Notes under the pieces: model-generated
Databases searched by the model: none
What the model was told of the DNA's origin: nothing
The model's input: only the letters and a program-made list of their open reading frames with translations
Sequence record: MZ234024.1
Length of the DNA stretch: 39,375 nt
Direction: 5' to 3' (one strand)
From: Escherichia phage vB_EcoP-101136BS1
Position numbers and translations under genes: made by a program
Part shown: positions 3,001 to 35,026 of the stretch, piece after piece
How positions within the stretch are numbered: the first letter of the stretch is position 1
How the letters are laid out: each line of letters starts with the position of its first letter

Positions 3001-3303
3001 CTTCCGCGCTCACCTACCGAGAAGACGGAGAAGCCAATCGCCTTTGGTGCTGCTTCCAGTGGTCCGGTAATGAATGTGGTCGGCAACTTCCTTGAGCAGG
3101 TCCCGGCTTTCGGCTATGCTGCTAACGTTGGTGCTACGGCTTACAACTTGGCGGGATACCTCAAGGCGGATACCCGTGTCAACGAGCGAGACTACATGAC
3201 CGGGATGTATAACACGTTCCGTGAACTTGTACCGAATGACCCGATTACCCAGAAGTTGCTGCTTGGAACGTTTGAGGAGCAGGGCATCCACATCAAGGAC
3301 TAA
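1..3303 (+). CDS. gp16: internal virion protein D (gp16), C-terminal 1100 codons; the 5' part of the same gene is at 38791..39375
   Basis: ORF is open from base 1 with no start. Translation shares long conserved blocks with T7 gp16 as recalled (LEARETARN, RSPTGMQSGASGK, RRVNGDIAIM, FFAKNAYMG, NGTTNYLLDA, DPRAMDLWR, ELVPNDP). Frame is continuous with the ORF running off the window end. Confidence 0.9.
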   Translation: MQEREDRSTWFGFGSATEAEVKNSMVGVAIRAGQTEDSLDVIGDVFNPTRWNNHKWSREELDQIRNAGVLPQYYGVITGGSPQNLTELINLALENQKLDQEKAKAGTGAQLAAGVIGAGVDPLTYVPIAGQVGKGGKLVNKMFTVAAQSGALAGASEIARTSVAGGDAHVAEAIMGGALFGGGMTAIGDAIGKALGKSTNEFAGPATRLEARETARNVDGQDLSRMPIREGEETFSHQGVKFADVPNEPGSVRLEDGSILIGENPLNPKTRKVFDEVIEPERAAAGVNLGGLTEIGLKLLRSENPEIRGVAADLVRSPTGMQSGASGKIGTTASDVFERLRAVDHRFYNDIDDAVTEALKDPYFQTAFWRDSGAFRQDIYQRVSMAIEDGSGNLKAELTPGELKVYDLLKNQFDAKREMMENPAMFGRPDAQSIFPGSRFKGTYVPHVYSNQMKELYIKELGSPEALQEAIKKSWLTSYASRPEVKKRVDEALLEADPTLTPEGLAAAVDKYANDKAYGISHTEQFERSSVMEENINGLVGLENNSFLEARNLFDSDMSIVLPNGQTFSVNNLREWDMDKIVPAYNRRVNGDIAIMAGTGKTTKDMKDLVETLMNKAGDDGKLKGEVSTLRDTLKILTGRARRDGADDAAFATVMRTMTDLSFFAKNAYMGVQNLTEIGGMLARGNVRAMLHGVPIFRDLAFRNKKVGASEIKDLHNVIFGKELDDSIRPSKQDVIDRLRSYSDLGRGTATALGTAKYYTGELAVRSPFTKVLNGTTNYLLDAGRQGFLSDIVEHSLTGSKRKFDDRWLKTAGISDEQWKGIKSLIRESVTRGPDGKYTIKDKKAFSQDPRAMDLWRMGDTIADETLLRPHKLSNMDAKAYGPIAKTVLQFKNFVIKSINGRTMRTFYNATKNNRAMDAALSTVMSMGLAGMYYMAQAHIKAYAMQDGRDREYLKQALNPTMIGYAALSRSSHLGGPLGVANILGGIAGYEDTKMLRSSILPRSPTEKTEKPIAFGAASSGPVMNVVGNFLEQVPAFGYAANVGATAYNLAGYLKADTRVNERDYMTGMYNTFRELVPNDPITQKLLLGTFEEQGIHIKD

Positions 3304-3321
3304 ACTATCACTATAGGAAAC
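3299..3321 (+). promoter_or_regulatory. phage RNAP promoter (phi17 position), CTAAACTATCACTATAGGAAAC
   Basis: One of 11 copies of the same ~20-nt motif with a TATAGG initiation region, placed just upstream of the tailspike gene as phi17 is in T7. Confidence 0.8.
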
Positions 3322-3367
3322 TGGAGGCGCTACCATAGGTCTCCGTTTAAATCACAAAGGAGGCATA

Positions 3368-5548
3368 ATGTCCACGATTACACAATTCCCTTCAGGAAAC
3401 ACTCAGTACAGGATAGAGTTCGACTACCTAGCCAGAACGTTTGTTGTTGTTACGCTGGTGAATAGCTCTAACCCTACCCTGAACCGTGTACTGGAAGTTG
3501 GTCGAGATTACCGATTCCTTAATCCAACGATGATTGAGATGTTGGCTGACCAATCAGGTTTCGACATCGTTCGTATTCACCGTCAGACTGGAACTGACTT
3601 AGTGGTAGACTTCAGGAATGGCTCAGTGTTGACAGCTAGTGACCTGACCAATTCAGAGCTTCAGGCTATCCATATTGCAGAAGAAGGTCGAGACCAAACG
3701 GTTGACTTAGCTAAGGAATATGCCGATGCTGCTGGTAGCTCTGCTGGCAACGCTAAGGATAGCGAGGACGAAGCACGCCGAATCGCTGCGAGTATCAAGG
3801 CAGCTGGTAAAATTGGCTATATTACCCGTCGCTCCTTCGAGAAAGGCTTCAACGTTACAACATGGAACGAGGTCCTGCTATGGGAAGAGGATGGTGATTA
3901 TTACCGCTGGGATGGTACGCTTCCAAAGAACGTTCCCGCTGGTTCAACTCCTGAATCATCTGGTGGTATTGGGCTGAGTGCGTGGGTTAGTGTTGGTGAT
4001 GCGTCACTTAGAGCAAACCTGGCTGATAGTGATGGCGCTAAATACATAGGCAGTGGAGAAAGGACATTACTTGAGCACAACAATGATGTTTTGCACTCAA
4101 AAGACTTTCCAACACTGCAGGCAGCTATAGATGCATCTTTGCAAAAAAATGATCTACTGGTGTCTCCTGGCAATTATACTGAAAAAGTTACTATTGGAAA
4201 CGCGCAGTTAAAAGGTGTTGGCGGGGCCACGGTACTAAAAACTCCGGCAGACTTTACAAACACTGTTCAGGTTAATTTAGCTACACCTCATTGGCAATTC
4301 CGCCATAGTGGTGGTTTTGCTATAGATGGTTCCGGGACAACCGGGGCCGTAGGTATTAGTTTTGACCCGTCAGACCAATATTCCGGACGTCATAATTTTA
4401 GTGATGTATACATCCACAACATCAACAAGGCCATTCAGAAGCCTTCCGGGAACATCGGCAATACTTGGAGAAATATTGGGATATCTACGTGTGATTGGGG
4501 GTATTACGCGATTAGTGGCTCAGAGATGCATTGCGGGGCCGATACCCTCTACAATATCCACTTCGATGGCATCTCCACCTATGCAGTCTATCTAGACGGC
4601 ACTGTCGATAATGGCGGGGGGGGCGCATGGTGGCTTAAAGACTCCATTATTGAGGCTTCCGGAGGTGGCGGGATATACTTAAAAAGTAAATCGGGCGACT
4701 GTCCTACATCTCCATGCGGGGTATCCAATATATGGATGGAAGCGATCGCAACATCACCGGCTGTTCAGGTAGACGGCGTGGCGCAAAAACCGCGAGTTCT
4801 CAAGTTGGTAGACACAGCGATATTCTTTGCTGAGTATTCTTATCTCAACAACATCGAGCTATCCAACTCCAACTTAGTAACTTATGGTTGCCGTTTTGAC
4901 AACGCTGATGGCAATCAGGATATTGTCGTGGATGCACAAAGTACCATTGTAGCCCATGACGTGTATTTAAACGGCAGTTCTGGAAAGGACGTTATTGTGG
5001 AGTCCGTAGCATCGCAATCTGCAACGATAGCTGCCACAAACTTATCTCTGAGGGGCAACTTAACAAGAGGGAGAGTATTTAATACGCCGACAGGGAATAA
5101 ATTAATGGCTATCACATTTGACTCAGGTAGCCATAATTTTTCTGGCAGCGGCACCGTTAACGGTTCGACTGTATCTGACGGACTTCACGCCGCTACATGT
5201 ACCGAATTTTCATTCCCCGGAGCCGGTTTATATGAAATGATAGCGACAAGAACAACCATTACATCCGGTAGATGGTACGTGTGGGGAGTTAACTCACGCC
5301 TACAATCTGGCTCGGCGGATATTAGTATAACGTTAGGTATTACCATGGGTAGTGTTTACACAAAGCCGGGGGAGTGGATTAGCACTTTCGGTGTAGGAAA
5401 GGCATCTACCACTGGCACTGTAGCGCTATACGTTTCCACAGGAGGAGGTTCGGGAGCTACGGTCAGATTCAGTGACTTTTTCATCGCTGAGTTTACGACG
5501 CAAGCTCAGGCTTTAGCTTTCGCCAATTCAAGGATGTCGTTATCATAA
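3368..5548 (+). CDS. gp17: tail fiber/tailspike (gp17) with T7-like N-terminal anchor and a long non-T7 C-terminal domain, possibly a beta-helix polysaccharide depolymerase
   Basis: Strong RBS AAAGGAGG upstream. N-terminal ~150 aa resemble the T7 gp17 adaptor region (EFDYLARTFVVVTL, LVDFRNGSVL). Remainder is Gly/Asn/Ser/Thr-rich with no T7 fiber similarity. Confidence 0.85.
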   Translation: MSTITQFPSGNTQYRIEFDYLARTFVVVTLVNSSNPTLNRVLEVGRDYRFLNPTMIEMLADQSGFDIVRIHRQTGTDLVVDFRNGSVLTASDLTNSELQAIHIAEEGRDQTVDLAKEYADAAGSSAGNAKDSEDEARRIAASIKAAGKIGYITRRSFEKGFNVTTWNEVLLWEEDGDYYRWDGTLPKNVPAGSTPESSGGIGLSAWVSVGDASLRANLADSDGAKYIGSGERTLLEHNNDVLHSKDFPTLQAAIDASLQKNDLLVSPGNYTEKVTIGNAQLKGVGGATVLKTPADFTNTVQVNLATPHWQFRHSGGFAIDGSGTTGAVGISFDPSDQYSGRHNFSDVYIHNINKAIQKPSGNIGNTWRNIGISTCDWGYYAISGSEMHCGADTLYNIHFDGISTYAVYLDGTVDNGGGGAWWLKDSIIEASGGGGIYLKSKSGDCPTSPCGVSNIWMEAIATSPAVQVDGVAQKPRVLKLVDTAIFFAEYSYLNNIELSNSNLVTYGCRFDNADGNQDIVVDAQSTIVAHDVYLNGSSGKDVIVESVASQSATIAATNLSLRGNLTRGRVFNTPTGNKLMAITFDSGSHNFSGSGTVNGSTVSDGLHAATCTEFSFPGAGLYEMIATRTTITSGRWYVWGVNSRLQSGSADISITLGITMGSVYTKPGEWISTFGVGKASTTGTVALYVSTGGGSGATVRFSDFFIAEFTTQAQALAFANSRMSLS

Positions 5549-5692
5549 AAACAACCTCAGCCGAATCGGGTTATTTATCATCAGAACGGTATTGAATCAT
5601 CGAAGGTTGTGGAGGTAGAGGCTAACTACACGTTGACCAACGTATGATAACAACTTTGGGTCACGGACGACCCGCTTTAAACTGGAGGTTTT

Positions 5693-5887
5693 ATGATTGA
5701 GTTAGACTTCAAGAATGAGGTCCTCAAAGCCTCGCCTATCGTCGGGACCGCTGCGGCTGATGGTGCCAGTCGGTTCTTCTTTGGGCTAACGCTCAACGAA
5801 TGGTTCTACGTCGCTGCTATCGCGTACACCGTGGTGCAGATTGGCGTCCTAATTTACAAGACGATTAAGAGCGGAGGTAAGACATGA
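5693..5887 (+). CDS. gp17.5: class II holin (gp17.5)
   Basis: 64 aa; near-identical block to T7 holin as recalled (FFGLTLNEWFYVAAIAYTVVQIG). Confidence 0.9.
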   Translation: MIELDFKNEVLKASPIVGTAAADGASRFFFGLTLNEWFYVAAIAYTVVQIGVLIYKTIKSGGKT

Positions 5888-6147
5888 CGCAGATGGACTT
5901 AGAGAAGTTCCTGTTAATGCTGGACACAGAACGTGCTAGACTAATGCTGCAAGACCTGCGGGATGACTCTAAGCGTTCGCCCCAGCTCTACAACGCCATT
6001 GAGAAGCTACTGGCTCGTCACAACTTCGTGCTAAGCAAGGTGTCTGTTGACGAGAAGACGCTCGCTGATATGGAGGCCCTGAACGCAGAGTACGATAAGG
6101 TGCTCTCCGCTACGGAAGATAATGACACTGGGTATGGAGTGCAGTAA
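5884..6147 (+). CDS. gp18: terminase small subunit (gp18)
   Basis: 87 aa; shares LMLDT and RSPQLYNAI with T7 gp18; start overlaps the holin stop. Confidence 0.85.
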   Translation: MTQMDLEKFLLMLDTERARLMLQDLRDDSKRSPQLYNAIEKLLARHNFVLSKVSVDEKTLADMEALNAEYDKVLSATEDNDTGYGVQ

Positions 6148-6160
6148 ATCTCTTAAGTGT

Positions 6161-6205
6161 TAGACTCAAGGTCATTACTGTGTGTAGTGGCCTTTATGGT
6201 TAACA
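6161..6205 (+). promoter_or_regulatory. conserved intergenic element GACTCAAGGTCAT...GTGGCCTTTATGGTTA, candidate RNase III site (T7 R18.5 position)
   Basis: Same motif recurs at 15320-15362 and 22385-22430, and in part at 11997-12012. AAGGTC and GGCCTT can pair with one G-U wobble. Confidence 0.45.
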
Positions 6206-6257
6206 CTAACTAGTGGAGGAGACTCTACGTGAAATCTGATAAACCGGGAGGGCAACT

Positions 6258-6707
6258 ATGCTCGAATTTTTAAAGAGAGCGGCTCCGTGGTTACTTGCAG
6301 CAGTGATGTTTGCTGGTGGCTACCGCACCGCTAACAATAAGTGGGAGGCTAAGGTCAATGCAGAATACACCTCGAATCTTAAGGCATCGGAAGATACAAG
6401 GCTTGCTGTCCAAGCTGAAGTCAACAAAGTGTCCAAACGGTTTCAGGACGAAATGTCCTCGCTGGAAGGCAGCACTGATAGGATTATTGCTGACCTTCAG
6501 TCTGACAATAAGCGGTTGCGCATCCGAGTCAAACCAACGAGTGGAACCACGCAAAGTGACGGTCGATGCTTCATTGATGGTTACGCCGAACTTGACGAAC
6601 GAGATGCTAAACGTCTTATCGCCATCGGAGTGAAAGGAGACAAGTGGATTAAGGCCCTTCAAGACACTGTGAGAGCCTTACAGCAAGAGAAGGAGGTGAC
6701 GCATTGA
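6258..6707 (+). CDS. gp18.5: Rz-like i-spanin (gp18.5)
   Basis: 149 aa; N-terminal membrane anchor; matches T7 gp18.5 ([29 protein letters not shown]). Confidence 0.85.
6358..6633 (+). CDS. gp18.7: Rz1-like o-spanin lipoprotein (gp18.7) embedded in the +1 frame of Rz
   Basis: Matches T7 gp18.7 ([18 protein letters not shown] lipobox, [10 protein letters not shown]). Start is uncertain; the open frame begins at 6310. Confidence 0.7.
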   Translation: MQNTPRILRHRKIQGLLSKLKSTKCPNGFRTKCPRWKAALIGLLLTFSLTISGCASESNQRVEPRKVTVDASLMVTPNLTNEMLNVLSPSE

Positions 6708-8467: not shown

Positions 8468-8507
8468 CTGAATGAATAACTATAGGTGAAAGCTGCATGA
8501 ATAAGCA

Positions 8508-8530
8508 GGTAGTAACCTATAGTTACTACC
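8508..8530 (+). other. perfect hairpin GGTAGTAAC-CTATA-GTTACTACC downstream of gp19
   Basis: 9-bp perfect inverted repeat with a 5-nt loop, read directly from the sequence; no U-tract follows. Confidence 0.5.
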
Positions 8531-8561
8531 AGTCTAACATACTGTTTTACAAGGAGTTTGG

Positions 8562-8584
8562 ACTTAACTATCACTATAGGGAAG
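8562..8584 (+). promoter_or_regulatory. phage RNAP promoter near the genome right end (phiOR position), TTAACTATCACTATAGGGAAG
   Basis: Matches the window's promoter consensus including a GGG start. Confidence 0.75.
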
Positions 8585-8764
8585 ACCCCCGGTTACTTAT
8601 AGTATTACTGTAGTGAATATACATATGCAGACTTTATGCAAGACCTTAGGAGGCAGACTCCGAGTTCTTACCTAAGGCTTGCACCGATGGAAGGAGGGTG
8701 ATATTAATCATAATCCCTCCAATACAGATAGTCACCGACCATAGATACAGGAGGTATGTAGCAT

Positions 8765-8923: not shown

Positions 8924-8956
8924 CGCAATCATGGTAACGATTCATGAGCGGAAGAC

Positions 8957-8999: not shown

Positions 9000-9084
9000 C
9001 TACTGTAGTCAAGGACTTTAGGTAACACCTTAAGAGAAGCTCACTTAGGGTCATCCTACTTATTGGTCTATCCTAGTGTCGCCT

Positions 9085-9126: not shown

Positions 9127-9163
9127 TGACGATGAGTTTTGGACCAAAAGTTTGAGACCACAT

Positions 9164-9346
9164 CTCACACTTCAAGAACCTCAAGTCTCCCCATAGGCCC
9201 TCTTTAAGTCCAGACCAAAGGCCCTACCCCAGTCTATCATAAGGTTAGACCGATGGTCCAGACTTCAGGTCAACGATAGGTCTAGGCTATGGCTTAGGGA
9301 AGGACGATAGGTTGGGACTATGGGTCTTCTTTGAGTCTCTATCTGT
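9164..9346. repeat. candidate terminal-repeat region with the genome left end near TCTCACA (9164)
   Basis: TCTCACA followed ~29 nt later by CCCCATAGG, and ending near CTATCTGT, mirrors landmarks of the T7 160-bp terminal repeat as recalled. Boundaries cannot be fixed from a collapsed assembly. Confidence 0.3.
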
Positions 9347-9480
9347 ATAACCATAAGTCACAACCATAGGTCACAGCCTACCTCTCACAACCATAAGTCA
9401 TAACCTACAGTCTCACTAACCTACAGTCTCAACCATAAGACACCAACACCTACAGTCATAGACCTACAGTTAATAGACAC
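9335..9480. repeat. array of short direct repeats (ACCTACAGTC x4, ACCATAAG(T/A)C x3) in the left-end non-coding region
   Basis: Repeats read directly at 9403, 9417, 9447 and 9461, and 9351, 9379 and 9431. Confidence 0.6.
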
Positions 9481-9580
9481 AGGCTATAGACTTAAGGTCT
9501 AAGACATGTTAGTCAAAGACTATATCCTCTTACACCATGGGGCCGACGATAGCTTAATCAATATTATTTCAAATTACCTA

Positions 9581-9610
9581 TTGACTATAGGTCCAGACTA
9601 TGGCCTAATA
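9581..9610 (+). promoter_or_regulatory. candidate host sigma70 early promoter (T7 A1 position)
   Basis: TTGACT at 9581-9586 as in the T7 A1 -35; the -10 is weak (CCTAAT at 17-nt spacing). Downstream ACACGACACGG...AACCGGATA aligns with sequence after T7 A1. Confidence 0.4.
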
Positions 9611-10182: not shown

Positions 10183-10184
10183 GA

Positions 10185-11972: not shown

Positions 11973-11978
11973 TTCTGA

Positions 11979-12001
11979 CTTAACTATCACTATAGGACTC
12001 A
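11979..12001 (+). promoter_or_regulatory. phage RNAP promoter immediately upstream of the RNAP gene (TTAACTATCACTATAGGACTC)
   Basis: Matches the window consensus with a GGA start, ~75 nt upstream of the gene 1 ATG. Confidence 0.7.
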
Positions 12002-12069: not shown

Positions 12070-14751
12070 ATGAGCGTCATCTCTATTGACAAGCACGACT
12101 TCTCTGATGTGTCGAACGCCATTGAGCCGTTTAACCTACTGGCTGACCACTACGGGCAAGACCTTGCAGTCAAACAGCTTCAGCTTGAGCACGAGGCATA
12201 CACTGAAGGCGAGCGACGTTTCATCAAGAACCTTGAGAGACAGACTGAGCGAGGGGAACTGGCAGACAATCAGGTCGCCAAGCCTTTGATGCAGACTCTA
12301 GTCCCTAAGATTGCGCAAGCCGTCAAGGAGTGGCATGAAGGTCCAGACGGGAAGCTGTCAACCTCTCGTCCGAGCGTAGCGTTCACCATGTTGAGCACTG
12401 AAGAGAAGGCCGTAAAGGTCCGCTCTTTGCGCATCTCCTGCGAGTCTGCTGCGGTTATCATACTGAAGGTCATACTCTCCAAGCTGGTCAAGCCTGAAGG
12501 GATACCGATTACACCGATGGCCTCAGCGATAGGTCGCACACTTGAGGACGAAATCCGCTTCGGTCGCATCCGTGACAAGGAGAAAGAGCACTTCAAGAAG
12601 GCGATAGCTGATAACCTGAATAAGCGGGCCGGGGCGTCCTACAAGAAAGCCTACATGCAAGCGGTCGAGGCATCCATGCTGGAGCAAGGCCAACTGGAAG
12701 ATGCGTGGGGGACTTGGAGTCCGACCGAGGCTGTCCACGTTGGAATCAAGATGCTGGAGATTGTCATCCAGTCCACACAACTGGTCGAGCTTAAGCGTTA
12801 CGGTGCTGGCAATGCAGCGGCTGACGTTGAGATGGTCCACCTGTCAGACTTCTGGGTCAAGAAGATGGCACAACGAGGATTCAGCCTTGCGGGTATAGCT
12901 CCAGTCTACCAGCCTTGCGTCGTTCCACCTAAGCCGTGGACTGGTGTCGTAGGCGGTGGGTACTGGGCCAAAGGACGCAGACCATTACCACTGATTCGCT
13001 TAGGGTCTAAGTCTGCGGTAGCACGCTACGAAGACGTGTATATGCCTGAAGTCTATGACGCTGTGAACATCATTCAGAATACACCTTGGAAAGTGAACAA
13101 GAAGGTTCTGGAAGTGGTGAACATGGTCGAGAAGCTGAACAACACGCCTATTGATGACATCCCTCAGATGGAACCGCTGAAGCCTGAGGACTATGCGGGT
13201 GAGACTGAAGAAGAACTCAAGGCATGGAAGAAGGCTGCTGCTGGTATCTATCGCCGCGAGAAGGCCAGACAGTCACGAAGATTGTCACTGAGCTTTATCG
13301 TCAACCAAGCGAACAAGTTCTCTCAGTTCAAGGCCATCTGGTTCCCGTATAACATGGACTGGCGCGGTCGCGTCTACGCTGTGCCGATGTTCAACCCTCA
13401 GGGTAACGACATGCAAAAGGGTCTTCTGACTCTGGCAGTCGGTAAGCCTATTGGTGCTGATGGTTTCAAATGGCTGAAGGTCCACGGTGCAAACTGCGCG
13501 GGTGTCGATAAAGTCACCTTCGAGGAGCGTATCAAGTGGGTGGAAGATAACCACGACAACATCATGGCTGCTGCCAAGGCACCGATGGATAGCATTGAGT
13601 GGTGGGGCAAGTTAGACTCTCCGTTCTGCTTCCTAGCGTTCTGCTTCGAGTATGCTGGCGCAATGCACCACGGCTTGTCTTACTCCTGCTCGCTGCCGAT
13701 AGCGTTCGATGGGTCCTGCTCTGGGATTCAGCACTTCAGCGCTATGCTTCGCGACCACATCGGTGGACATGCAGTAAACCTGACGCCATCCGGTAAGGTC
13801 CAAGACATCTACCGCATCGTGTCTGACCGCATTGAGGAGGAGCTTAAAGTCCTACTGGTTAACGGTACGGACAACGAGATGGTAACTCACGAGGACAAGA
13901 AAACTGGTGAGATTACCGAGCGTCTCAAGCTGGGGACACGAGAGCTTGCCCGTCAGTGGCTGACCTACGGTATGTCACGAAAGGTCACTAAGCGTTCGGT
14001 CATGACTCTGGCCTACGGGTCGAAAGAGTACGGCTTCGCAGACCAAGTTTACGAGGACATCGTGATGCCAGCGATTGACTCAGGGTCTGGCGCTATGTTC
14101 ACTGAACCAAGCCAAGCATCTCGCTTCATGGCTAAGATGATTTGGGAAGCTGTGAGTGTGACCGTAGTTGCTGCGGTTGACGCGATGAAATGGCTTCAGG
14201 GTGCTGCCAAGCTGCTTGCTGCTGAAGTGAAGGACAAGAAGACTGGAGAAATCCTGAAGCCTTGTCTTCCGGTACACTGGGTCACACCTGATGGTTTCCC
14301 TGTCTGGCAGGAATACCGCAAGAAGGACACCACTCGTCTGAACCTGATGTTCTTAGGGTCATTCAACCTTCAGCCTACCGTCAACAAAGGCACGAAGAAA
14401 GAGCTGGACAAGCACAAGCAGGAGTCAGGCATTAGCCCGAACTTCGTCCACTCACAAGATGGTAGCCACCTGCGGAAGACTGTAGTCCACACTCACCGCA
14501 AGTATGGCGTGATGTCATTCGCAGTGATTCACGATAGCTTCGGGACCATCCCTGCTGACGCTGAGTATCTGTTCCGTGGTGTCCGTGAGACGATGGTCGA
14601 GACATACCGCGATAACGATGTGCTGCTTGACTTCTACGAGCAGTTTGAATACCAGCTTCATGAAAGCCAGCGCGACAAGTTGCCTGAGCTTCCGAAGAAA
14701 GGTAAACTGAATATCGAAGACATCTTGTCTTCAGACTTTGCATTCGCTTAA
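12070..14751 (+). CDS. gp1: single-subunit DNA-directed RNA polymerase (gene 1)
   Basis: 893 aa (T7 RNAP is 883); conserved C-terminus ...HDSFGTIPADA...DFAFA and specificity-loop region TRLNLMFLGSFNLQPT (T7: TRLNLMFLGQFRLQPT). Confidence 0.97.
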   Translation: MSVISIDKHDFSDVSNAIEPFNLLADHYGQDLAVKQLQLEHEAYTEGERRFIKNLERQTERGELADNQVAKPLMQTLVPKIAQAVKEWHEGPDGKLSTSRPSVAFTMLSTEEKAVKVRSLRISCESAAVIILKVILSKLVKPEGIPITPMASAIGRTLEDEIRFGRIRDKEKEHFKKAIADNLNKRAGASYKKAYMQAVEASMLEQGQLEDAWGTWSPTEAVHVGIKMLEIVIQSTQLVELKRYGAGNAAADVEMVHLSDFWVKKMAQRGFSLAGIAPVYQPCVVPPKPWTGVVGGGYWAKGRRPLPLIRLGSKSAVARYEDVYMPEVYDAVNIIQNTPWKVNKKVLEVVNMVEKLNNTPIDDIPQMEPLKPEDYAGETEEELKAWKKAAAGIYRREKARQSRRLSLSFIVNQANKFSQFKAIWFPYNMDWRGRVYAVPMFNPQGNDMQKGLLTLAVGKPIGADGFKWLKVHGANCAGVDKVTFEERIKWVEDNHDNIMAAAKAPMDSIEWWGKLDSPFCFLAFCFEYAGAMHHGLSYSCSLPIAFDGSCSGIQHFSAMLRDHIGGHAVNLTPSGKVQDIYRIVSDRIEEELKVLLVNGTDNEMVTHEDKKTGEITERLKLGTRELARQWLTYGMSRKVTKRSVMTLAYGSKEYGFADQVYEDIVMPAIDSGSGAMFTEPSQASRFMAKMIWEAVSVTVVAAVDAMKWLQGAAKLLAAEVKDKKTGEILKPCLPVHWVTPDGFPVWQEYRKKDTTRLNLMFLGSFNLQPTVNKGTKKELDKHKQESGISPNFVHSQDGSHLRKTVVHTHRKYGVMSFAVIHDSFGTIPADAEYLFRGVRETMVETYRDNDVLLDFYEQFEYQLHESQRDKLPELPKKGKLNIEDILSSDFAFA

Positions 14752-15298: not shown

Positions 15299-15321
15299 CC
15301 TAAACTATCACTATAGGATTA
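15299..15321 (+). promoter_or_regulatory. phage RNAP promoter (phi1.1 position)
   Basis: CCTAAACTATCACTATAGGATTA. Confidence 0.8.
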
Positions 15322-15362
15322 GACTCAAGGTCATGACTCAAAGTCGTGGCCTTCATGATTAA
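15320..15362 (+). promoter_or_regulatory. conserved element AGACTCAAGGTCAT...GTGGCCTTCATGATTA, candidate RNase III site (R1.1 position)
   Basis: Second copy of the 6161 motif, directly downstream of a promoter. Confidence 0.45.
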
Positions 15363-17164: not shown

Positions 17165-17187
17165 CCTAAGCTATCACTATAGGACAA
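17165..17187 (+). promoter_or_regulatory. phage RNAP promoter (CTAAGCTATCACTATAGGACAAC)
   Basis: Consensus match with one mismatch. Confidence 0.75.
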
Positions 17188-17215
17188 CCCCCTAACCGAC
17201 CAAAGGAGAAACCTT

Positions 17216-17890: not shown

Positions 17891-18045
17891 CTGAGGTTGA
17901 GAAGAAATACATCGTGGAGCTTGAGGGTCGCGTTCAGTCCTTCGAGGTTCCGTTGTACGCAAAGTCTCTTGAAGAGGCTACACTGAAGTCCCAAGAGTAT
18001 GAGGACGCTGGGTTTGTGGTCGGACGGATTCGCCCTGAGACCTAA
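17887..18045 (+). CDS. gp2: Gp2-like inhibitor of host RNA polymerase
   Basis: 52 aa; [14 protein letters not shown]...[10 protein letters not shown] matches T7 Gp2 SFEVPIYAETLDEA...AGFEVTRVRP. Below the ORF-track size cutoff. Confidence 0.7.
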
Positions 18046-18062
18046 CTATCACTGTAGGACAG
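18040..18062 (+). promoter_or_regulatory. variant phage promoter (CTAACTATCACTGTAGGACAG; phi2.5 position)
   Basis: Consensus with TGTAGG in place of TATAGG, located before the SSB gene. Confidence 0.5.
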
Positions 18063-19738: not shown

Positions 19739-20186
19739 GGTACAGTTCAATCCACGGTCCCGGACCGACGCTATCTTCGTACACTGTTCGGCTACCAAGC
19801 CAGAGATGGACATCGGGGTAGAGACCATCCGTATGTGGCACAAGCAGCAAGGCTGGCTGGACGTAGGCTACCACTTTATCATCAAGCGCGATGGCACTGT
19901 GGAAGAGGGACGCCCGGTCAATGTCGTAGGGTCACACGTTAAGGACTGGAACTCACGGTCTGTAGGCGTCTGCCTTGTAGGTGGAATTGACGCTAAGGGC
20001 AAGTTTGAAGCTAACTTCACTCCGGCCCAGATGAACTCCCTGCGCAACAAGCTGGCTGACCTGAAGGTCCTGTATCCTCAGGCAGAAATCAAAGCACACC
20101 ATGACGTAGCACCTAAGGCGTGTCCAAGTTTTGACTTGCAACGCTGGCTGTCTACCAATGAACTGGTCACTTCCGACCGTGGTTAA
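19728..20186 (+). CDS. gp3.5: N-acetylmuramoyl-L-alanine amidase / T7 lysozyme (gp3.5)
   Basis: 152 aa; DAIFVHCSATKP, WLDVGYHFIIKRDGTVEEGR, GVCLVGGID, HHDVAPKACPSFDL, NELVTSDRG nearly identical to T7 lysozyme. Confidence 0.95.
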   Translation: MVSKVQFNPRSRTDAIFVHCSATKPEMDIGVETIRMWHKQQGWLDVGYHFIIKRDGTVEEGRPVNVVGSHVKDWNSRSVGVCLVGGIDAKGKFEANFTPAQMNSLRNKLADLKVLYPQAEIKAHHDVAPKACPSFDLQRWLSTNELVTSDRG

Positions 20187-20210: not shown

Positions 20211-20426
20211 ATGATTAAACTTATCGAATTTCTTGGTCGTCTGGTGGTGCGTGGTTATCGTCGTGCTGCGGTACGGGAACGAAAGGTAGAAAAGAAGACT
20301 GCGGACGGTGCGGCTGATGCTGCTGCTCTGGCTGACAAGCTGACCATCGCGTCACTGGAAGCTGGCATGAAGGCGCGTCAGGCTGACACCAAAGCCGACC
20401 AGTTGTCTCAGTTCTTCAAAGCCTAA
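20211..20426 (+). CDS. hypothetical protein, 71 aa (T7 gene 3.8 position, but no HNH motifs)
   Basis: ORF with N-terminal hydrophobic segment and Ala/Lys-rich helix. Confidence 0.5.
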   Translation: MIKLIEFLGRLVVRGYRRAAVRERKVEKKTADGAADAAALADKLTIASLEAGMKARQADTKADQLSQFFKA

Positions 20427-20444
20427 ACTATCACCTTAGGGATG
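20422..20444 (+). promoter_or_regulatory. variant phage promoter (CCTAAACTATCACCTTAGGGATG)
   Basis: Upstream consensus intact, but the -4..-1 region is CTTA instead of TATA. Confidence 0.45.
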
Positions 20445-20491: not shown

Positions 20492-22195
<1,704 letters not shown>

Positions 22196-22206: not shown

Positions 22207-22371
22207 TTGCTAAGAAAACTTAAAGCTCGCTACCATCGGTTCATGTACAAATGGTGGAGCGACGAAGCAACCTGCCTGTCGAACATTCTGGGAGACCAGC
22301 GGTTCAACTCTGAGGCATGGAAGAAAGCTAACCGGAAGTTCATGTATCACTTCTTGCGTACAGACTTCTAG
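22207..22371 (+). CDS. hypothetical small basic protein (gene 4.3/4.5 region)
   Basis: ORF-track 22174..22371 overlaps gp4; a TTG at 22207 follows AGGAGG by 5 nt. Start is uncertain. Confidence 0.35.
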   Translation: MLRKLKARYHRFMYKWWSDEATCLSNILGDQRFNSEAWKKANRKFMYHFLRTDF

Positions 22372-22384
22372 GTCTAGACTCAAG

Positions 22385-22430
22385 GTCATTCATAGCGAGT
22401 GGCCTTTATGATTAGACTAAAGCGGAGGAT
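22385..22430 (+). promoter_or_regulatory. conserved element TAGACTCAAGGTCAT...GTGGCCTTTATGATTA, candidate RNase III site upstream of the DNA polymerase gene
   Basis: Third copy of the 6161 motif. Confidence 0.45.
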
Positions 22431-25204: not shown

Positions 25205-25410
25205 GTGAATACTTACGGGTCCTAGCGGCCCTTAAGTCCTGCCCGAAGACCTTCCAGTCCAACTATGTGCGCAACAACGCTGCACTTGTGGCTGAGGCTG
25301 CGAGTCGTGGACATCTAAGCTGCCTGTCTATGGATGGGCGTAACAACGGTGCGTGGGAGATTACCGCTGCTGGCACCAAGTTCCTGAACCAACACGGAGG
25401 ATGCCTGTGA
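25201..25410 (+). CDS. gp5.7: gp5.7-like protein
   Basis: 69 aa, the same length as T7 gp5.7; KSCPKTFQSNYVRNNA.LVAEAASRGH.SCL...GAWEITA.GT.FL near-identical. Confidence 0.85.
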   Translation: MSEYLRVLAALKSCPKTFQSNYVRNNAALVAEAASRGHLSCLSMDGRNNGAWEITAAGTKFLNQHGGCL

Positions 25411-26399: not shown

Positions 26400-26422
26400 A
26401 CTAAACTATCACTATAGGGACT
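26400..26422 (+). promoter_or_regulatory. phage RNAP promoter (phi6.5 position)
   Basis: CTAAACTATCACTATAGGGACT, full consensus. Confidence 0.85.
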
Positions 26423-26483
26423 TTAGGACCTAAGATATGACTATAAGATAGACTTTAGTCTTAACTTAAAGAGGAGATTCAAG

Positions 26484-27674: not shown

Positions 27675-29243
27675 ATGGCTGAACGTGAAGGGTTCGCTGC
27701 TGAAGGCGCGAAGTCAGTTTATGATAGATTGAAGAACGGACGACAGCCTTACGAGACCCGCGCACAGAACTGTGCTGCCGTGACTATCCCCTCGCTATTT
27801 CCTAAGGAGTCCGACAACTCGTCTACTGAGTACACCACTCCGTGGCAAGCTGTAGGTGCTCGCTGTTTGAACAACTTGGCTGCAAAGCTGATGTTGGCGT
27901 TATTCCCTCAGTCACCGTGGATGCGACTTACAGTCTCCGAATACGAGGCAAAGACCTTGAGTCAGGACTCAGAGGCGGCTGCTCGTGTTGATGAAGGGCT
28001 GGCTATGGTCGAGCGTGTGTTGATGGCTTACATGGAGACTAACAGTTTCCGTGTCCCATTATTCGAGGCGCTGAAGCAGCTTATCGTCTCAGGTAACTGC
28101 CTGCTCTACATCCCTCCTCCAGAACAAGGAACCTACAGTCCTATGCGAATGTACCGCTTAGTGTCCTACGTTGTTCAACGTGATGCTTTCGGTAACATCT
28201 TACAGATTGTGACTCTCGACAAGGTAGCGTTTAGTGCTCTACCGGAAGACGTGAAGTCTCAACTCAACGCAGACGACTATGAGCCTGACACCGAGCTTGA
28301 AGTGTATACGCACATCTACCGTCAGGACGACGAGTATCTGCGCTACGAGGAAGTGGAAGGCATTGAGGTGACAGGTACCGATGGTTCCTACCCGCTGACT
28401 GCATGTCCATACATCCCGGTACGAATGGTTCGACTGGATGGTGAAGACTACGGTCGTTCTTACTGCGAGGAGTATCTGGGCGACCTCAACTCGCTGGAGA
28501 CGATTACAGAAGCTATCACAAAAATGGCTAAGGTAGCCTCCAAGGTGGTGGGCCTCGTTAACCCGAACGGTATCACGCAACCTAGACGTCTGAACAAGGC
28601 GGCTACAGGTGAGTTCGTGGCTGGTCGCGTTGAGGACATCAACTTCCTGCAACTGACGAAAGGTCAGGACTTTACGATTGCTAAGTCGGTGGCTGACGCT
28701 ATCGAGCAACGTTTAGGCTGGGCCTTCCTTCTTAATAGTGCTGTTCAGCGTAATGCCGAGCGTGTCACTGCTGAAGAGATTCGTTATGTTGCTGGCGAAC
28801 TGGAGGCGACCTTAGGTGGCGTGTACTCAGTACAGTCACAAGAGCTTCAGTTACCTATCGTCCGTGTGCTGATGAACCAACTTCAGTCTGCTGGCATGAT
28901 TCCTGACCTTCCGAAAGAAGCGGTAGAGCCTACTGTCTCAACTGGTCTGGAAGCTCTGGGCCGTGGTCAGGACTTGGAGAAGCTGACTCAGGCGGTTAAC
29001 ATGATGACTGGTCTTCAGCCTCTACAACAGGACCCAGACATTAACTTGCCTACACTGAAGCTGCGACTGCTGAATGCCTTAGGCATTGACACCGCTGGTC
29101 TGCTACTGACTCAGGACGAGAAGTTGCAACGCATGGCTGAACAATCCGCTCAAGGAGCTGTGGTCAACGGTGCGTCTGCTGCTGGTGCTAACATGGGTGC
29201 TGCTGTAGGTCAGGGAGCTGGTGAGGACATGGCTCAAGCCTAA
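27675..29243 (+). CDS. gp8: head-to-tail connector / portal protein (gp8)
   Basis: 522 aa (T7 gp8 is 536); strong RBS; position between gp7.3 and scaffold. Confidence 0.9.
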   Translation: MAEREGFAAEGAKSVYDRLKNGRQPYETRAQNCAAVTIPSLFPKESDNSSTEYTTPWQAVGARCLNNLAAKLMLALFPQSPWMRLTVSEYEAKTLSQDSEAAARVDEGLAMVERVLMAYMETNSFRVPLFEALKQLIVSGNCLLYIPPPEQGTYSPMRMYRLVSYVVQRDAFGNILQIVTLDKVAFSALPEDVKSQLNADDYEPDTELEVYTHIYRQDDEYLRYEEVEGIEVTGTDGSYPLTACPYIPVRMVRLDGEDYGRSYCEEYLGDLNSLETITEAITKMAKVASKVVGLVNPNGITQPRRLNKAATGEFVAGRVEDINFLQLTKGQDFTIAKSVADAIEQRLGWAFLLNSAVQRNAERVTAEEIRYVAGELEATLGGVYSVQSQELQLPIVRVLMNQLQSAGMIPDLPKEAVEPTVSTGLEALGRGQDLEKLTQAVNMMTGLQPLQQDPDINLPTLKLRLLNALGIDTAGLLLTQDEKLQRMAEQSAQGAVVNGASAAGANMGAAVGQGAGEDMAQA

Positions 29244-29262
29244 ACTATCACTATAGGAACAA
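29240..29262 (+). promoter_or_regulatory. phage RNAP promoter (phi9 position)
   Basis: CTAAACTATCACTATAGGAACA, overlapping the gp8 stop. Confidence 0.85.
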
Positions 29263-29296
29263 CGTCTGGTCTACAATTTGTAGGTTTCTAGTCCAG

Positions 29297-30217: not shown

Positions 30218-30219
30218 TT

Positions 30220-30242
30220 GACTAAACTATCACTATAGGGAG
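30220..30242 (+). promoter_or_regulatory. phage RNAP promoter (phi10 position), best consensus copy
   Basis: CTAAACTATCACTATAGGGAGAC, with the same +1 to +6 GGGAGA as T7. Confidence 0.9.
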
Positions 30243-30345
30243 ACCAAGAGACAGACTCAAGGTTTCCCTATTACTTCAGTCCATACGGATTGGGCATACA
30301 GTAAGTAATAAACTTTATCTTTCAATTGAATAGGAGAATTATCAT

Positions 30346-31395: not shown

Positions 31396-31658
31396 CGACC
31401 TTTAAGGCCCTCTCTACAGAGGGTCCTACCTTAGAGACGTATAGTTCTACGGTGGGAACCAGCCTGAAGGTTGACTTCCCTGAGCTTTCAGATGTGACCG
31501 ATTGGTCGCTGCTTGAGGTGACTACGCCTGATGGTGTTAGCTACTCCCGTAGAACCAACAGTCTCTACTTCAAGGCCACCTCTGGCGTGGAAGGTCTGGT
31601 GATTGTTGGGTATGACGGGACGCCTGTGCGTTCCTTCAACGTATCTTTCACAAACTAA
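31371..31658 (+). CDS. gp10B: predicted -1 frameshift extension of the capsid protein (gp10B-like minor capsid), 96 codons
   Basis: Heptamer G GTT TTC at 31368-31374, 7 codons before the gp10A stop. The -1 frame is open from there to 31658 (checked codon by codon), ending just before the terminator. Confidence 0.6.
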   Translation, partial: FHSGVSGLTTFKALSTEGPTLETYSSTVGTSLKVDFPELSDVTDWSLLEVTTPDGVSYSRRTNSLYFKATSGVEGLVIVGYDGTPVRSFNVSFTN

Positions 31659-31659
31659 T

Positions 31660-31703
31660 TGAAACCCCTTGGGTGCCTTCGGGTGCTTGAGGGGTTTTTT
31701 TTG
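31660..31703 (+). terminator. intrinsic terminator (T7 T-phi-like)
   Basis: GAAACCCCTTGGGTGCC-TTCG-GGTGCTTGAGGGGTT followed by U8; resembles T7 T-phi (AACCCCTTGGGGCCTCTAAACGGGTCTTGAGGGGTTTTTTG). Confidence 0.85.
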
Positions 31704-31717
31704 CTTAAGGAGGGACT

Positions 31718-31807
31718 ATGGTCCTTATTTACACAGGGTTAGCACTATTCGTCTTATTCTGGGCGTACCTGCTGTCCAGCTCACCGTCTAGCGCCTATGA
31801 CCGTTAA
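31718..31807 (+). CDS. possible small hydrophobic peptide, 29 aa
   Basis: Strong RBS TAAGGAGGG, 4 nt spacer; MVLIYTGLALFVLFWAYLLSSSPSSAYDR. Too short to score. Confidence 0.3.
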   Translation: MVLIYTGLALFVLFWAYLLSSSPSSAYDR

Positions 31808-31818
31808 GGAGTAAACCT

Positions 31819-32385
31819 ATGGCTCAATACATTCCACTGAATGCTAACGATGACTTAGATGCCATCAACGATATGTTAGCAGCTATCGGTGAACCAGCAG
31901 TCCTACAGCTTGACGAAGGTAACGCTGACGTCTCGAACGCTCAACGTATCCTGCATCGTGTCAATCGTCAGGTCCAAGCTAAAGGCTGGAACTTTAACAT
32001 CAACGAAGCTGCTGTCCTGACACCTGATGTCCAAGACAATAGGATTCGATTCCTGCCGTCTTACCTTCGGGTCATGACTGCTGGTGCTACCAGTTACTAC
32101 AGCAACATGGGGGGCTATCTCTATGACCTGTCCACTCAGTCCACGACCTTCACTGGACCAATTACAGTCGAACTGGTGGAGATGAAACCGTTCGCTGAGA
32201 TGCCTGTAGTATTCCGTGACTACATCGTTACCAAGGCTAGCCGTGAGTTCAACGCTAAGTTCTTCGGTAGCCCAGAGTCTGAACTGTACCTTCGTGAGCA
32301 GGAAGCAGAACTCTACCAGCAGGTGATGGAGTACGAGATGGACACTGGTCGCTACAACATGATGTCCGACATCGGGAGGGACTAA
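31819..32385 (+). CDS. gp11: tail tubular protein A (gp11)
   Basis: 188 aa; ILASIGEP, ANA.RIL..NRQ.Q..GW.FNI.E, IVTKASR.FN..FFG.PE, EYEMD.G.YNM shared with T7 gp11. Confidence 0.92.
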   Translation: MAQYIPLNANDDLDAINDMLAAIGEPAVLQLDEGNADVSNAQRILHRVNRQVQAKGWNFNINEAAVLTPDVQDNRIRFLPSYLRVMTAGATSYYSNMGGYLYDLSTQSTTFTGPITVELVEMKPFAEMPVVFRDYIVTKASREFNAKFFGSPESELYLREQEAELYQQVMEYEMDTGRYNMMSDIGRD

Positions 32386-32612
32386 TGGCTAGTCACAACC
32401 TGAAGATTCACCGCCAGCACTTTGGTCCGGTACAACTGGGTCTAAAGACAGCAGAGCTGAGACTTAACGACCGGGACTTTAAGGTTGGCGACTGGCTTAT
32501 CCTGAATGAGTGGGACAACGGGTATACTGGACAACAGGTAGCACGTAAGGTTGTCCACATTGCTGACGTTGGTGACATCGCTGAGGGATACGTCCTAATG
32601 AGTATGATTTAA
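32385..32612 (+). CDS. ASCH/PUA-like small protein (DUF3850-like), 75 aa
   Basis: Contains GLKTAELR, matching the ASCH GxKxxExR signature, then DRDFKVGDWLIL. Start overlaps the gp11 stop; ends 10 nt before gp12. Confidence 0.6.
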   Translation: MASHNLKIHRQHFGPVQLGLKTAELRLNDRDFKVGDWLILNEWDNGYTGQQVARKVVHIADVGDIAEGYVLMSMI

Positions 32613-32621
32613 GGAGAGCCT

Positions 32622-34979
32622 ATGCCATTAATTACGCAAAGCATAAAAAATCTTAAAGGTGGTATTAGCCAGCAGCCAGACATACTGAGGTTCTCAGACC
32701 AAGGCGAGGCACAAGTTAACTGCTGGTCATCCGAAAGTGATGGACTCCAGAAGCGTCCACCTACAGTCTTCAAGCGACGTCTTAACATCGACGTTGGGAG
32801 CAACCCCAAGTTCCACCTGATTAACCGTGATGAGCAGGAGCAGTATTACATAGTGTTCAACGGGTCCAACATTCAGGTAGTTGACTTGAGCGGTAATCAA
32901 TACTCAGTTTCCGGTGAGGTAGACTACGTTAAATCGTCCAACCCGCGAGATGACATCCGTGTCGTTACCGTTGCAGACTATACGTTCATCGTGAACCGTA
33001 AGGTTGTCGTTAAAGGTGGAAGCGAGAAGTCACACTCTGGTTATAATCGTAAAGCACGCGCTTTAATTAACCTGCGCGGTGGACAGTATGGTCGCACCCT
33101 TAAGGTAGGAATCAACGGTGGAGTTAAGGTCTCGCATAAGCTGCCAGCAGGTAATGATGCCGAGAATGACCCACCTAAGGTGGACGCTCAAGCCATTGGT
33201 GCAGCTCTGAGAGACCTTCTTGTTGCTGCCTATCCTACCTTCACGTTCGACCTTGGGTCTGGCTTCCTGCTAATCACAGCTCCTTCAGGGACCGACATTA
33301 ACTCAGTGGAGACTGAGGATGGATACGCTAACCAGCTAATCAGCCCAGTCCTCGACACGGTGCAAACAATCTCTAAGTTGCCTCTTGCGGCTCCAAATGG
33401 GTACATCATTAAGATTCAAGGTGAGACCAACAGTAGCTCCGATGAATATTACGTGATGTATGACTCCAATACTAAGACGTGGAAGGAGACAGTAGAGCCG
33501 GGAGTGGTCACTGGGTTCGATAACACCACAATGCCACATGCTCTGGTGAGACAATCTGACGGCTCCTTTGAGTTCAAGACTCTGGACTGGTCTAAGCGGG
33601 GTGCTGGTAATGATGACACAAACCCTATGCCTAGCTTCGTGGATGCTACGATTAACGATGTGTTCTTCTACAGGAACAGGCTAGGGTTCTTGTCAGGAGA
33701 GAACGTAATCATGAGCCGTTCAGCCAGCTACTTTGCGTTCTTCCCTAAGAGTGTGGCGACATTGAGTGATGATGACCCTATTGACGTAGCTGTAAGTCAC
33801 CCTAGAATCTCAATACTTAAGTATGCCGTTCCGTTTAGCGAGCAGCTACTACTTTGGTCGGATGAGGTTCAGTTCGTGATGACAAGCTCTGGTGTCCTTA
33901 CCTCGAAGTCTATCCAGCTTGATGTAGGCTCAGAGTTTGCCTTAGGAGATAATGCCCGACCGTTCGCTGTAGGACGCTCAGTCTTCTTCTCAGCGCCTCG
34001 TGGGTCATTCACCAGCATTAAGCGATACTTCGCTGTAGCAGATGTGTCTGACGTGAAGGATGCCGATGATACCACAGGCCACGTACTGTCCTATATTCCT
34101 AACGGGGTGTTTGACATTCAAGGTACAGGGACTGAGAACTACATCTGCGTCAACTCTACAGGTGCATACAACCGAATCTACATCTACAAGTTCTTGTTTA
34201 AGGACGGCGTACAACTTCAAGCCTCTTGGTCGCACTGGGAGTTCCCTAAAGCTGATAAGATTCTGGCGTCTGCGTCGATTGGCTCTACCATGTTCATTGT
34301 TCGTCAGCACCAAGGGGGTGTGGACATTGAGCACCTTAAGTTCATCAAGGAGGCAACCGACTTTCCATTAGAGCCGTATAGACTCCACGTTGACTCCAAG
34401 GTGTCTATGGTAATCCCAATTGGCTCATATAACGCTGACACCTATGAGACTACGGTCGACATTGGTTCTGCTTATGGTGGAAACGCTCCGTCTCCCGGTC
34501 GGTACTATCTGATTGACAGTCAGGGTGCCTATGTGGACCTTGGTGAACTGACCAACATCTCAACTGTGGCTATACTCAATGGCGATTGGTCGGGACGTAC
34601 AGTGTTCATCGGACGGTCTTATCTGATGTCCTACAAGTTCTCACGGTTCCTGATTAAGATTGAAGACGATAGTGGCACTCAGTCTGAAGACACTGGACGT
34701 CTACAGCTTCGTAGGGCTTGGGTCAACTACAAGGACACTGGCGCTCTTAGACTCATTGTCAGAAACGGTGAGCGGGAGTTCGTGAACACCTTTAATGGGT
34801 ACACCCTTGGTCAGCAACCCATCGGGACTACCAACATTGGGGACGGTCAGTATCGCTTCGCTATGAATGGTAACGCATTAACCACGAGTCTAACCTTAGA
34901 GTCAGACTATCCTACCCCAGTGTCCATCGTTGGGTGTGGCTGGGAGGCGTCATACGCTAAGAAAGCTCGTTCCGTCTAA
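32622..34979 (+). CDS. gp12: tail tubular protein B (gp12)
   Basis: 785 aa (T7 gp12 is 794); position between gp11 and the phi13 promoter. Confidence 0.9.
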   Translation: MPLITQSIKNLKGGISQQPDILRFSDQGEAQVNCWSSESDGLQKRPPTVFKRRLNIDVGSNPKFHLINRDEQEQYYIVFNGSNIQVVDLSGNQYSVSGEVDYVKSSNPRDDIRVVTVADYTFIVNRKVVVKGGSEKSHSGYNRKARALINLRGGQYGRTLKVGINGGVKVSHKLPAGNDAENDPPKVDAQAIGAALRDLLVAAYPTFTFDLGSGFLLITAPSGTDINSVETEDGYANQLISPVLDTVQTISKLPLAAPNGYIIKIQGETNSSSDEYYVMYDSNTKTWKETVEPGVVTGFDNTTMPHALVRQSDGSFEFKTLDWSKRGAGNDDTNPMPSFVDATINDVFFYRNRLGFLSGENVIMSRSASYFAFFPKSVATLSDDDPIDVAVSHPRISILKYAVPFSEQLLLWSDEVQFVMTSSGVLTSKSIQLDVGSEFALGDNARPFAVGRSVFFSAPRGSFTSIKRYFAVADVSDVKDADDTTGHVLSYIPNGVFDIQGTGTENYICVNSTGAYNRIYIYKFLFKDGVQLQASWSHWEFPKADKILASASIGSTMFIVRQHQGGVDIEHLKFIKEATDFPLEPYRLHVDSKVSMVIPIGSYNADTYETTVDIGSAYGGNAPSPGRYYLIDSQGAYVDLGELTNISTVAILNGDWSGRTVFIGRSYLMSYKFSRFLIKIEDDSGTQSEDTGRLQLRRAWVNYKDTGALRLIVRNGEREFVNTFNGYTLGQQPIGTTNIGDGQYRFAMNGNALTTSLTLESDYPTPVSIVGCGWEASYAKKARSV

Positions 34980-35003
34980 CTTATTGAAGGGCCTATAGAT
35001 TTA

Positions 35004-35026
35004 CCTTAACTATCACTATAGGGACT
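35004..35026 (+). promoter_or_regulatory. phage RNAP promoter (phi13 position) bracketed by a 10-bp inverted repeat
   Basis: CTTAACTATCACTATAGGGACT; flanked by GGGCCTATAG (34989-34998) and CTATAGGCCC (35026-35035). Confidence 0.8.

Follow-up and report, generated by a model that had tools for sequence, protein, structure and literature searches.

The genome sequence of Escherichia phage vB_EcoP-101136BS1 (MZ234024.1) was analysed over its whole length of 39,375 bp, referred to here as the window, with respect to a family of eleven short repeats and the single-subunit RNA polymerase (RNAP) encoded by gene 1. The repeats are almost certainly the cognate promoters of the gene 1 polymerase, with which they form a pair that has its own specificity, that of the K1F class. 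An earlier note, made from the sequence alone, had proposed a co-evolved and possibly orthogonal pair on the strength of an unusual sequence at promoter positions -12 to -9 and an Arg to Asn change in the specificity loop of the polymerase. Published work supports the proposal: T7 RNAP carrying 754S/756N/761V activates promoters with ACTAT in the corresponding region and is orthogonal to T7 (PMC3458549, PMC11880802). The pair is not a discovery, since the K1F class is already described and has been known and used in synthetic biology since 2012. The window itself is a complete, circularly permuted K1F-like coliphage genome of the genus Kayfunavirus.

Promoter repeats and the gene 1 polymerase

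A search of the window with the 20-mer CTAAACTATCACTATAGGGA gave ten matches at up to three mismatches, all on the + strand, where 0.00 were expected from 100 shuffles. The ten sites were used to build a weight matrix, which was then scanned over the window. The scan recovered the ten sites plus an eleventh with its +1 at 18057 (CCTAACTATCACTGTAGGAC, 25 bits), which the mismatch search had missed because this copy has G at -3 and lacks 1 nt of the A-run further upstream. Scores of the eleven sites range from 25 to 39 bits, compared with a best score of 11.4 bits in 30 shuffles, and the scan of the window found no minus-strand site of 8 bits or more. The eleven copies counted in the earlier note were thus recovered, all on the + strand and at gene boundaries; from -17 of the first copy to +6 of the last they span 3299-35026, as the note had placed them. 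When K1F (NC_007456) was scanned with the same matrix, the same eleven promoters were found in the same order and in one-to-one synteny, together with the same weak extra site that is described below. The predicted promoters, each given from -17 to +6, are as follows.

3299..3321, + strand: promoter phi17, +1 at 3316; 37 bits; overlaps the gene 16 stop codon, 52 nt before the gene 17 ATG, with a Shine-Dalgarno (SD) sequence seen downstream; K1F +1 at 32614
8562..8584, + strand: promoter phiOR, +1 at 8579; 36 bits; after terminase gene 19, towards the terminal repeat; K1F +1 at 38869
11978..12000, + strand: promoter phi1, +1 at 11995; 35 bits; 75 nt upstream of the polymerase gene ATG (12070)
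15299..15321, + strand: promoter phi1.1, +1 at 15316; 36 bits; before the gp1.1/1.2/ligase cluster; K1F +1 at 5569
17165..17187, + strand: promoter phi1.6, +1 at 17182; 34 bits; G at -12, the same variant as at K1F +1 7200
18040..18062, + strand: promoter phi2.5, +1 at 18057; 25 bits, the weakest; overlaps the gp2 stop codon, 46 nt before the gp2.5 ATG; K1F +1 at 8516
20422..20444, + strand: promoter phi4, +1 at 20439; 33 bits; deviant CACCTTAGG; before the primase/helicase gene
26400..26422, + strand: promoter phi6.5, +1 at 26417; 38 bits; K1F +1 at 17194
29239..29261, + strand: promoter phi9, +1 at 29256; 39 bits, the top-scoring copy; K1F +1 at 20015
30221..30243, + strand: promoter phi10, +1 at 30238; 37 bits; before the major capsid gene; K1F +1 at 21014
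35004..35026, + strand: promoter phi13, +1 at 35021; 35 bits; K1F +1 at 25338

Each of the 11 sites lies at a gene boundary, some of them overlapping the preceding stop codon, with an SD sequence and an ATG 34-108 nt downstream. The promoters precede genes 1, 1.1, 1.6, 2.5, 4, 6.5, 9, 10, 13 and 17, and phiOR follows gene 19. Placed on the coding strand ahead of gene clusters, they would drive middle and late transcription. The exact 20-mer occurs in only 2 of the 11 copies, and A is found at +3 in six. Positions C-16, A-13, CTATCAC (-11 to -5), T-2, A-1, G+1 and G+2 are invariant in all 11. The consensus, aCTaAACTATCACTATAGGa, is identical to that of K1F, and has the ACTAT sequence (-12 to -8) followed by CACTATAGG that characterizes the cognate promoters of the K1F class.

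For comparison, consensus sequences were derived from the annotated promoters of T7, T3 and K11.

T7 promoter consensus: TAATACGACTCACTATAGGgaga
T3 promoter consensus: AtTaACCCTCACTAAAGGGAga
K11 promoter consensus: AATTAGGaCaCACTATAGGGAga

From -12 to -9 the window promoters have ACTA, where T7 has CGAC and T3 has ACCC; the values that the earlier note gave for T7 and T3 were correct, as was its description of the -8 to +2 core as T7-like, a segment shared with T7 in these consensus sequences. Four of the six bases from -12 to -7 differ between the window and T7. Further upstream, at -17 to -14, the window has aCTa where T7 has TAAT.

It is hardly conceivable that the repeats serve instead in RNA processing, as origins of replication or as signals for packaging. 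Several copies do have RNase III site-like hairpins nearby, and T7 phiOL and phiOR also act in replication and packaging. However, the TCACTATAGG core, the orientation on a single strand and the placement before gene clusters all agree with what is annotated for promoters in T7, T3 and K11, and the hairpin motifs lie downstream of +1 as elements of their own. A near-identical sequence has also been shown biochemically to be a promoter: the RNAP of phage Ro45lw was purified and found active, its minimal promoter is ACTTAACTATCACTATAGGGA, and the +1 G was mapped by sequencing (PMC12272871). This minimal promoter is the same as the phiOR/phi13-type copies in the window. In addition, a 2026 genome note describes a dispersed repeat, CTWAACTATCACTATAGG, in another Kayfunavirus, and calls its copies promoters (PMC13298934). 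We therefore treat the repeats as promoters of the gene 1 polymerase, for which the following features were located.

12070..14751, + strand: gene 1, T7-like single-subunit RNA polymerase of K1F type, 893 aa (Pfam and alignment)
14332..14385, + strand: specificity loop codons, TRLNLMFLGSFNLQPTVN; T7 residues 745-762; same as the K1F loop
12340..12381, + strand: codons of the AT-rich recognition loop region, GPDGKLSTSRPSVA; T7 about residues 91-102 (alignment)

The gene 1 product contains both Pfam domains expected of a T7-like single-subunit RNAP (RNA_pol PF00940 at 6.7e-107 and RPOL_N PF14700 at 7.8e-15) and matches T7 RNAP structures over its full length, 1cez/1aro being the best solved homologue. 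The catalytic residues D537, K631, Y639, H784 and D812 of T7 are conserved as D547, K641, Y649, H794 and D822. The protein is 99% identical to K1F gp1, 95% to the Ro45lw polymerase and 64% to T7 RNAP; the six residues that distinguish it from K1F gp1 (113, 117, 330, 348, 374 and 531) all lie outside the two recognition loops, which are identical in the two phages. In a phage collection, the 79-aa loop region of the window is matched at 95% identity or more by 204 records.

Residue equivalences in the loops were taken from alignments with the K1F, T7, T3, K11 and SP6 polymerases. The specificity loop, TRLNLMFLGSFNLQPTV (nt 14332-14382), aligns without gaps to T7 residues 745-761. In this alignment N766 of the window polymerase is at the position of T7 R756, so that the Arg is not conserved here; the earlier note had assigned the Arg to Asn change to this residue, and its T7 loop sequence and numbering were accurate. 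Going beyond that note, Q754 of T7 is replaced by Ser (S764) and I761 by Val (V771), whereas R746, N748 and Q758 are unchanged. The combination N748, S754, N756, Q758 and V761 is that of the K1F class. The Ro45lw loop differs from this one only by M750L; Ro45lw is a separate species of the same genus.

The second recognition loop, the AT-rich recognition loop, reads GPDGKLSTSRPSV (GPDGK-LS-TSRPSV) and has a 2-residue insertion relative to T7, with Thr in place of T7 R96. By analogy with T7 this loop may take part in promoter recognition. Its divergence, together with that of the promoter module at -17 to -14, is a further refinement of the picture in the earlier note. Overall, T7 and the window share the polymerase fold, the catalytic residues, R746/N748/Q758, the -8 to +2 promoter core, the genome layout and the Tphi terminator, but their polymerases differ by Q754S, R756N and I761V and by the insertion and the loss of R96 in the AT-rich loop.

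T7 R756 contacts the guanine of the -9 base pair. By homology, N766 of the window polymerase would sit where R756 makes this contact, and the change from C-9 to A-9 would remove the guanine that Arg would read. If the T7 initiation complex is a guide, the beta-hairpin of the specificity loop would read the major groove from -12 to -7; in that complex R746, N748, R756 and Q758 make base-specific major-groove hydrogen bonds (PMC11880802). With Asn at 756 and N748 retained, the window promoters have T-10/A-9, as opposed to A-10/C-9 in T7 and C-10/C-9 in T3, and there is divergence from T7 in the AT-rich recognition loop and at -17 to -14 as well.

Covariation of loop and promoter within Kayfunavirus

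The analysis was extended to eight genomes of Kayfunavirus type, with polymerases 85-100% identical to that of the window, and both loops and the promoter consensus were extracted from each. Residues 748/754/756 and promoter positions -12 to -8 combine as follows.

Window, K1F, 22664BS1, Ro45lw and Kc166A: N/S/N with ACTAT
EclP_26: N/T/N with ACTAT
Ro103C3lw, GW1 and EcpYZU01: D/T/R with ACCCT

Thus five of the eight relatives have N748/N756 with ACTAT and three have D748/R756 with ACCCT, the latter combination being that of T3 itself. EcpYZU01, GW1 and Ro103C3lw belong to the same genus as the window, with polymerases 85-89% identical to its own and the same promoter placement, including the promoter before gene 1, but in their D748/T754/R756 loops, ACCCT promoters and upstream ATTAA they have a T3-like specificity. 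Within one genus, therefore, a change at residues 748 and 756 goes with a change of all promoters, which supports co-evolution of polymerase and promoters. Nature provides here a clean example of a complete set of promoters that has switched along with its polymerase. The comparison also refines the importance that the earlier note had given to R756N: residue 756 is one of two covarying positions and is not singled out as the sole determinant, 748 switching with it. On these comparisons the determinant would be the residue pair 748/756 rather than R756N alone. Residue 754 does not follow the promoter switch in the eight-genome comparison, and Q754S looks irrelevant, since EclP_26 has T754 with N756 and still has ACTAT promoters. 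A one-residue, one-base code linking R756 to position -9 was also considered and rejected. K11 has N756 but C at -9, which argues against a context-free residue-base code; the K11 loop also differs at 748, 755, 757 and 758.

We consider it very unlikely that the repeats are promoters whose specificity is set mainly outside residue 756, either by the AT-rich loop reading -17 to -13 or by the loop context, with R756N a mere passenger. The AT-rich loop of the window polymerase, with its 2-residue insertion and lost R96, the divergence of -17 to -14 from T7 with an invariant C-16, and the N756 of K11 would all fit such an arrangement, as would the finding that 5' truncation of the Ro45lw promoter is not tolerated (PMC12272871). 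Among the Kayfunavirus genomes, however, a switch at -10 and -9 accompanies that of 748 and 756, and a 754S/756N/761V graft in T7 RNAP was enough to activate ACTAT promoters that kept the T7 upstream TAATA. Kc166A also speaks against it, as it has a different AT-rich loop and an upstream ATTAA, and yet has N748/N756 with ACTAT.

The same genomes bear on the role of the upstream module. Those with an AT-rich loop of the window type have C at -16, loops of the RGK/RGR type go with upstream ATTAA, and the loop of Kc166A, different again, also goes with ATTAA; these associations are correlations only. The combination found in Kc166A indicates that the two modules are separable. Since the published graft kept the T7 upstream TAATA and worked, the specificity loop is sufficient for switching; the upstream module may add to discrimination in the native system.

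The published K1F class and orthogonality

Temme and coworkers (2012) mined T7-family phages and sorted the polymerases into groups by beta-hairpin, each group having one consensus binding region (PMC3458549). With the K1F hairpin grafted into T7 RNAP, the resulting T7(K1F) gave 17-fold induction on the matching promoter and was orthogonal to the T7, T3 and N4-type pairs, each RNAP being described as highly orthogonal (PMC3458549). The variant is tabulated as 632S/754S/756N/761V, with ACTAT as the cognate sequence at promoter positions 6-10 (PMC11880802, Table 2; Nucleic Acids Research 2025), which we take to be -12 to -8. K1F, and with it the window, has the same 754S/756N/761V and ACTAT combination as this variant. 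In a direct coupling analysis in the same publication, residue 756 is coupled to positions 8 and 9 of the promoter (PMC11880802), which we take to be -10 and -9. The K1F loop was later reused in the "sigma fragments" of a split polymerase (PMC4299498), and the native K1F RNAP with its promoter PK1F has served as an orthogonal expression and mutagenesis system that is orthogonal to the MmP1 and VP4 systems (PMC12218169). The class to which the window belongs is therefore well charted: it has been catalogued and its loop grafted into T7 RNAP, it has found use in orthogonal gene circuits and in targeted mutagenesis, and its covariation has been studied across hundreds of phage genomes.

Several points weigh against the assignment of a distinct, loop-determined specificity to the window pair. 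In K11, as described above, N756 is paired with C at -9, and in the window N748 is as in T7 although -11 and -10 differ. The published graft altered three loop residues together, so that R756N was not isolated, and in the split T7 scaffold the K1FR sigma fragment needed an extra M750R for good activity (PMC4299498). A structure search found no solved K1F-type polymerase, T7 RNAP being the best homologue, and for this reason we infer the atomic contacts of N756 (window N766) from T7. Activity and orthogonality of the pair are taken from the literature on related enzymes, the window enzyme being 6 residues from K1F gp1. Finally, the four-member Temme set was reported to be only modestly orthogonal, with a minimum ratio of 8 (PMC11880802).

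This last figure, with non-cognate pairings still relatively active, leads to the view that the pair is distinct in sequence without being meaningfully orthogonal, T7-type and K1F-type polymerases reading each other's promoters at useful levels. We regard this as unlikely. The -8 to +2 core is indeed common to T7 and window promoters, and a variable background has been ascribed to cross-reactivity of T7 RNAP with test promoters (PMC12272871). On the other hand, the differences from T7 at -12 to -7 affect most of the positions that the loop would read, and high orthogonality was reported for each RNAP in the original grafting study (PMC3458549). K1F-based mutators also gave a ~46,000-fold on-target increase versus 6-27-fold off-target, although here the comparison was with MmP1 and VP4, not T7 (PMC12218169). 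The evidence thus favors a window pair with its own, K1F-class specificity.

Individual promoters and genome organization

The promoter phi1, at full strength and 75 nt upstream of the gene for the polymerase itself, implies positive autoregulation. An equivalent promoter was found 74-82 nt upstream of gene 1 in eight of eight Kayfunavirus genomes, in each case in the genome's own specificity class (ACTAT or ACCCT). In T7, T3 and K11 no phage promoter is present within 600 nt upstream of gene 1, and our literature search found no discussion of a promoter upstream of this gene. The left end of the genome differs as well. The weight-matrix scan detected no phiOL-type promoter between the left end at 9163 and gene 0.3 (10266); the sequence TGACTATAGG at 9582, considered as a phiOL equivalent, was rejected at <8 bits. 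T7, T3 and K11 have phiOL, whereas in the window the first phage promoter from the left end is phi1.

It is possible, but we would put it forward only tentatively, that the system combines two co-adapted modules, one in which N748/N756 read T-10/A-9 and one in which the AT-rich loop without R96 reads C-16/T-15, with a gene 1 that is a natural autogene under positive feedback, a feature lacking in T7, T3 and K11. If so, published loop grafts exploit only one of two recognition modules. Experimental dissection of the two-module or autogene idea seems to be absent from the literature that we reached.

Two of the eleven promoters deviate in ways that may affect their strength. In phi2.5 one A has been lost upstream (CCTAAACT to CCTAACT) relative to K1F, Ro45lw and 22664BS1. 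The deletion puts the -16 to -14 module out of register, and the score is 25 bits versus 31 in K1F. Either the promoter is truly weakened in this strain or the missing A is a sequencing error in a homopolymer. In phi4 the core CACCTTAGG replaces CACTATAGG, and K1F, 22664BS1 and Ro45lw deviate in the same or a similar way, which suggests a deliberately weak promoter kept by selection. Only phi10, among the eleven copies, has the GGGAGA start of T7 class III promoters. Ro45lw has an additional promoter before its DNA polymerase gene, with +1 at 12462.

The only further candidate, a possible twelfth promoter at 26429-26451 (CCTAAGATATGACTATAAGATAG, +1 about 26446), was not counted. This weak site, 29 nt downstream of the start of phi6.5, scores 13 bits compared with a maximum of 11.4 in shuffled sequence. 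It is conserved at this position in K1F, Ro45lw and 22664BS1, and may represent a weak tandem promoter, a duplicate that has decayed or a portion of some RNA structure. Within 8474-8530, near-matches to TAACTATAGG at 8477(+) and 8516(-), in opposite orientation just upstream of phiOR, are without the CAC core and are not promoters by the matrix. The 8516(-) near-match lies inside a perfect palindrome with a 10-bp stem, GGTAGTAACCTATAGTTACTACC, at 8508-8530.

Assignment of the window to Kayfunavirus is based on whole-genome similarity and gene order. The window has 98% nucleotide identity to vB_EcoP-22664BS1 (Kayfunavirus LM33P1) over the first 25 kb, the starting base being identical, and the nucleotides of gene 1 are 99.4% identical to those of vB_EcoP-U8 and of LM33P1. 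The gene order is that of K1F and T7. The break in the record splits gene 16, as 38791-39375 join in frame to 1-3303, giving 195 + 1,100 = 1,295 aa, the same length as K1F gp16. The nearest GenBank record has the same start base, and there gene 16 is annotated as a truncated 1-3303 coding sequence. The left end of K1F with its terminal repeat of 178 bp maps to one place in the window, about 9163-9339 (a direct repeat of ~177 bp); the repeat is thus present only once, and position 9163 marks the physical left end. Next to the terminal repeat on its inner side, at 9340-9500, there is a short degenerate repeat array of ACCATAAGTCACAACC and CCTACAGTCTCA types, which resembles the arrays adjoining T7-family genome ends.

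Two genes differ in structure from their K1F counterparts. Gene 17 (3368-5548) codes for a tail spike of 726 aa, which has a Tail_spike_N domain and the N-terminal adaptor of the T7 tail fibre and is much shorter than the 1,064-aa K1F product; an exchange of the receptor-binding part, usual in Kayfunavirus, has evidently taken place. In the nearest GenBank record gene 17 is labelled 'hypothetical protein'. The DNA polymerase gene is one uninterrupted open reading frame in the window, but the K1F annotation joins it from two pieces that flank an HNH endonuclease gene.

A terminator was predicted downstream of the capsid gene.

31661..31708, + strand: Tphi-like terminator between genes 10 and 11, a GC-rich hairpin of 17 bp with a T-run after it

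It lies where T7, T3 and K11 have Tphi and where a terminator is annotated in Ro45lw, and it would end the transcription driven by the phage promoters. The hairpins mentioned above as resembling RNase III sites share the motif AGACTCAAGGT, which has 14 matches at up to one mismatch compared with 1.2 expected. In three of the four places where it occurs exactly, it is the 5' arm of a stable hairpin of the form AAGGUCAU...GGCCUUUAUGAUUA (z about -2.6 to -2.7). Such hairpins are found at 6156-6207, 15322-15353 and 22371-22417, and the motif also occurs at 11995, 30253 and 9488. The hairpin positions match those of the T7/T3 RNase III sites R18.5, R1.1 and R4.7, and they are probably RNase III processing sites.

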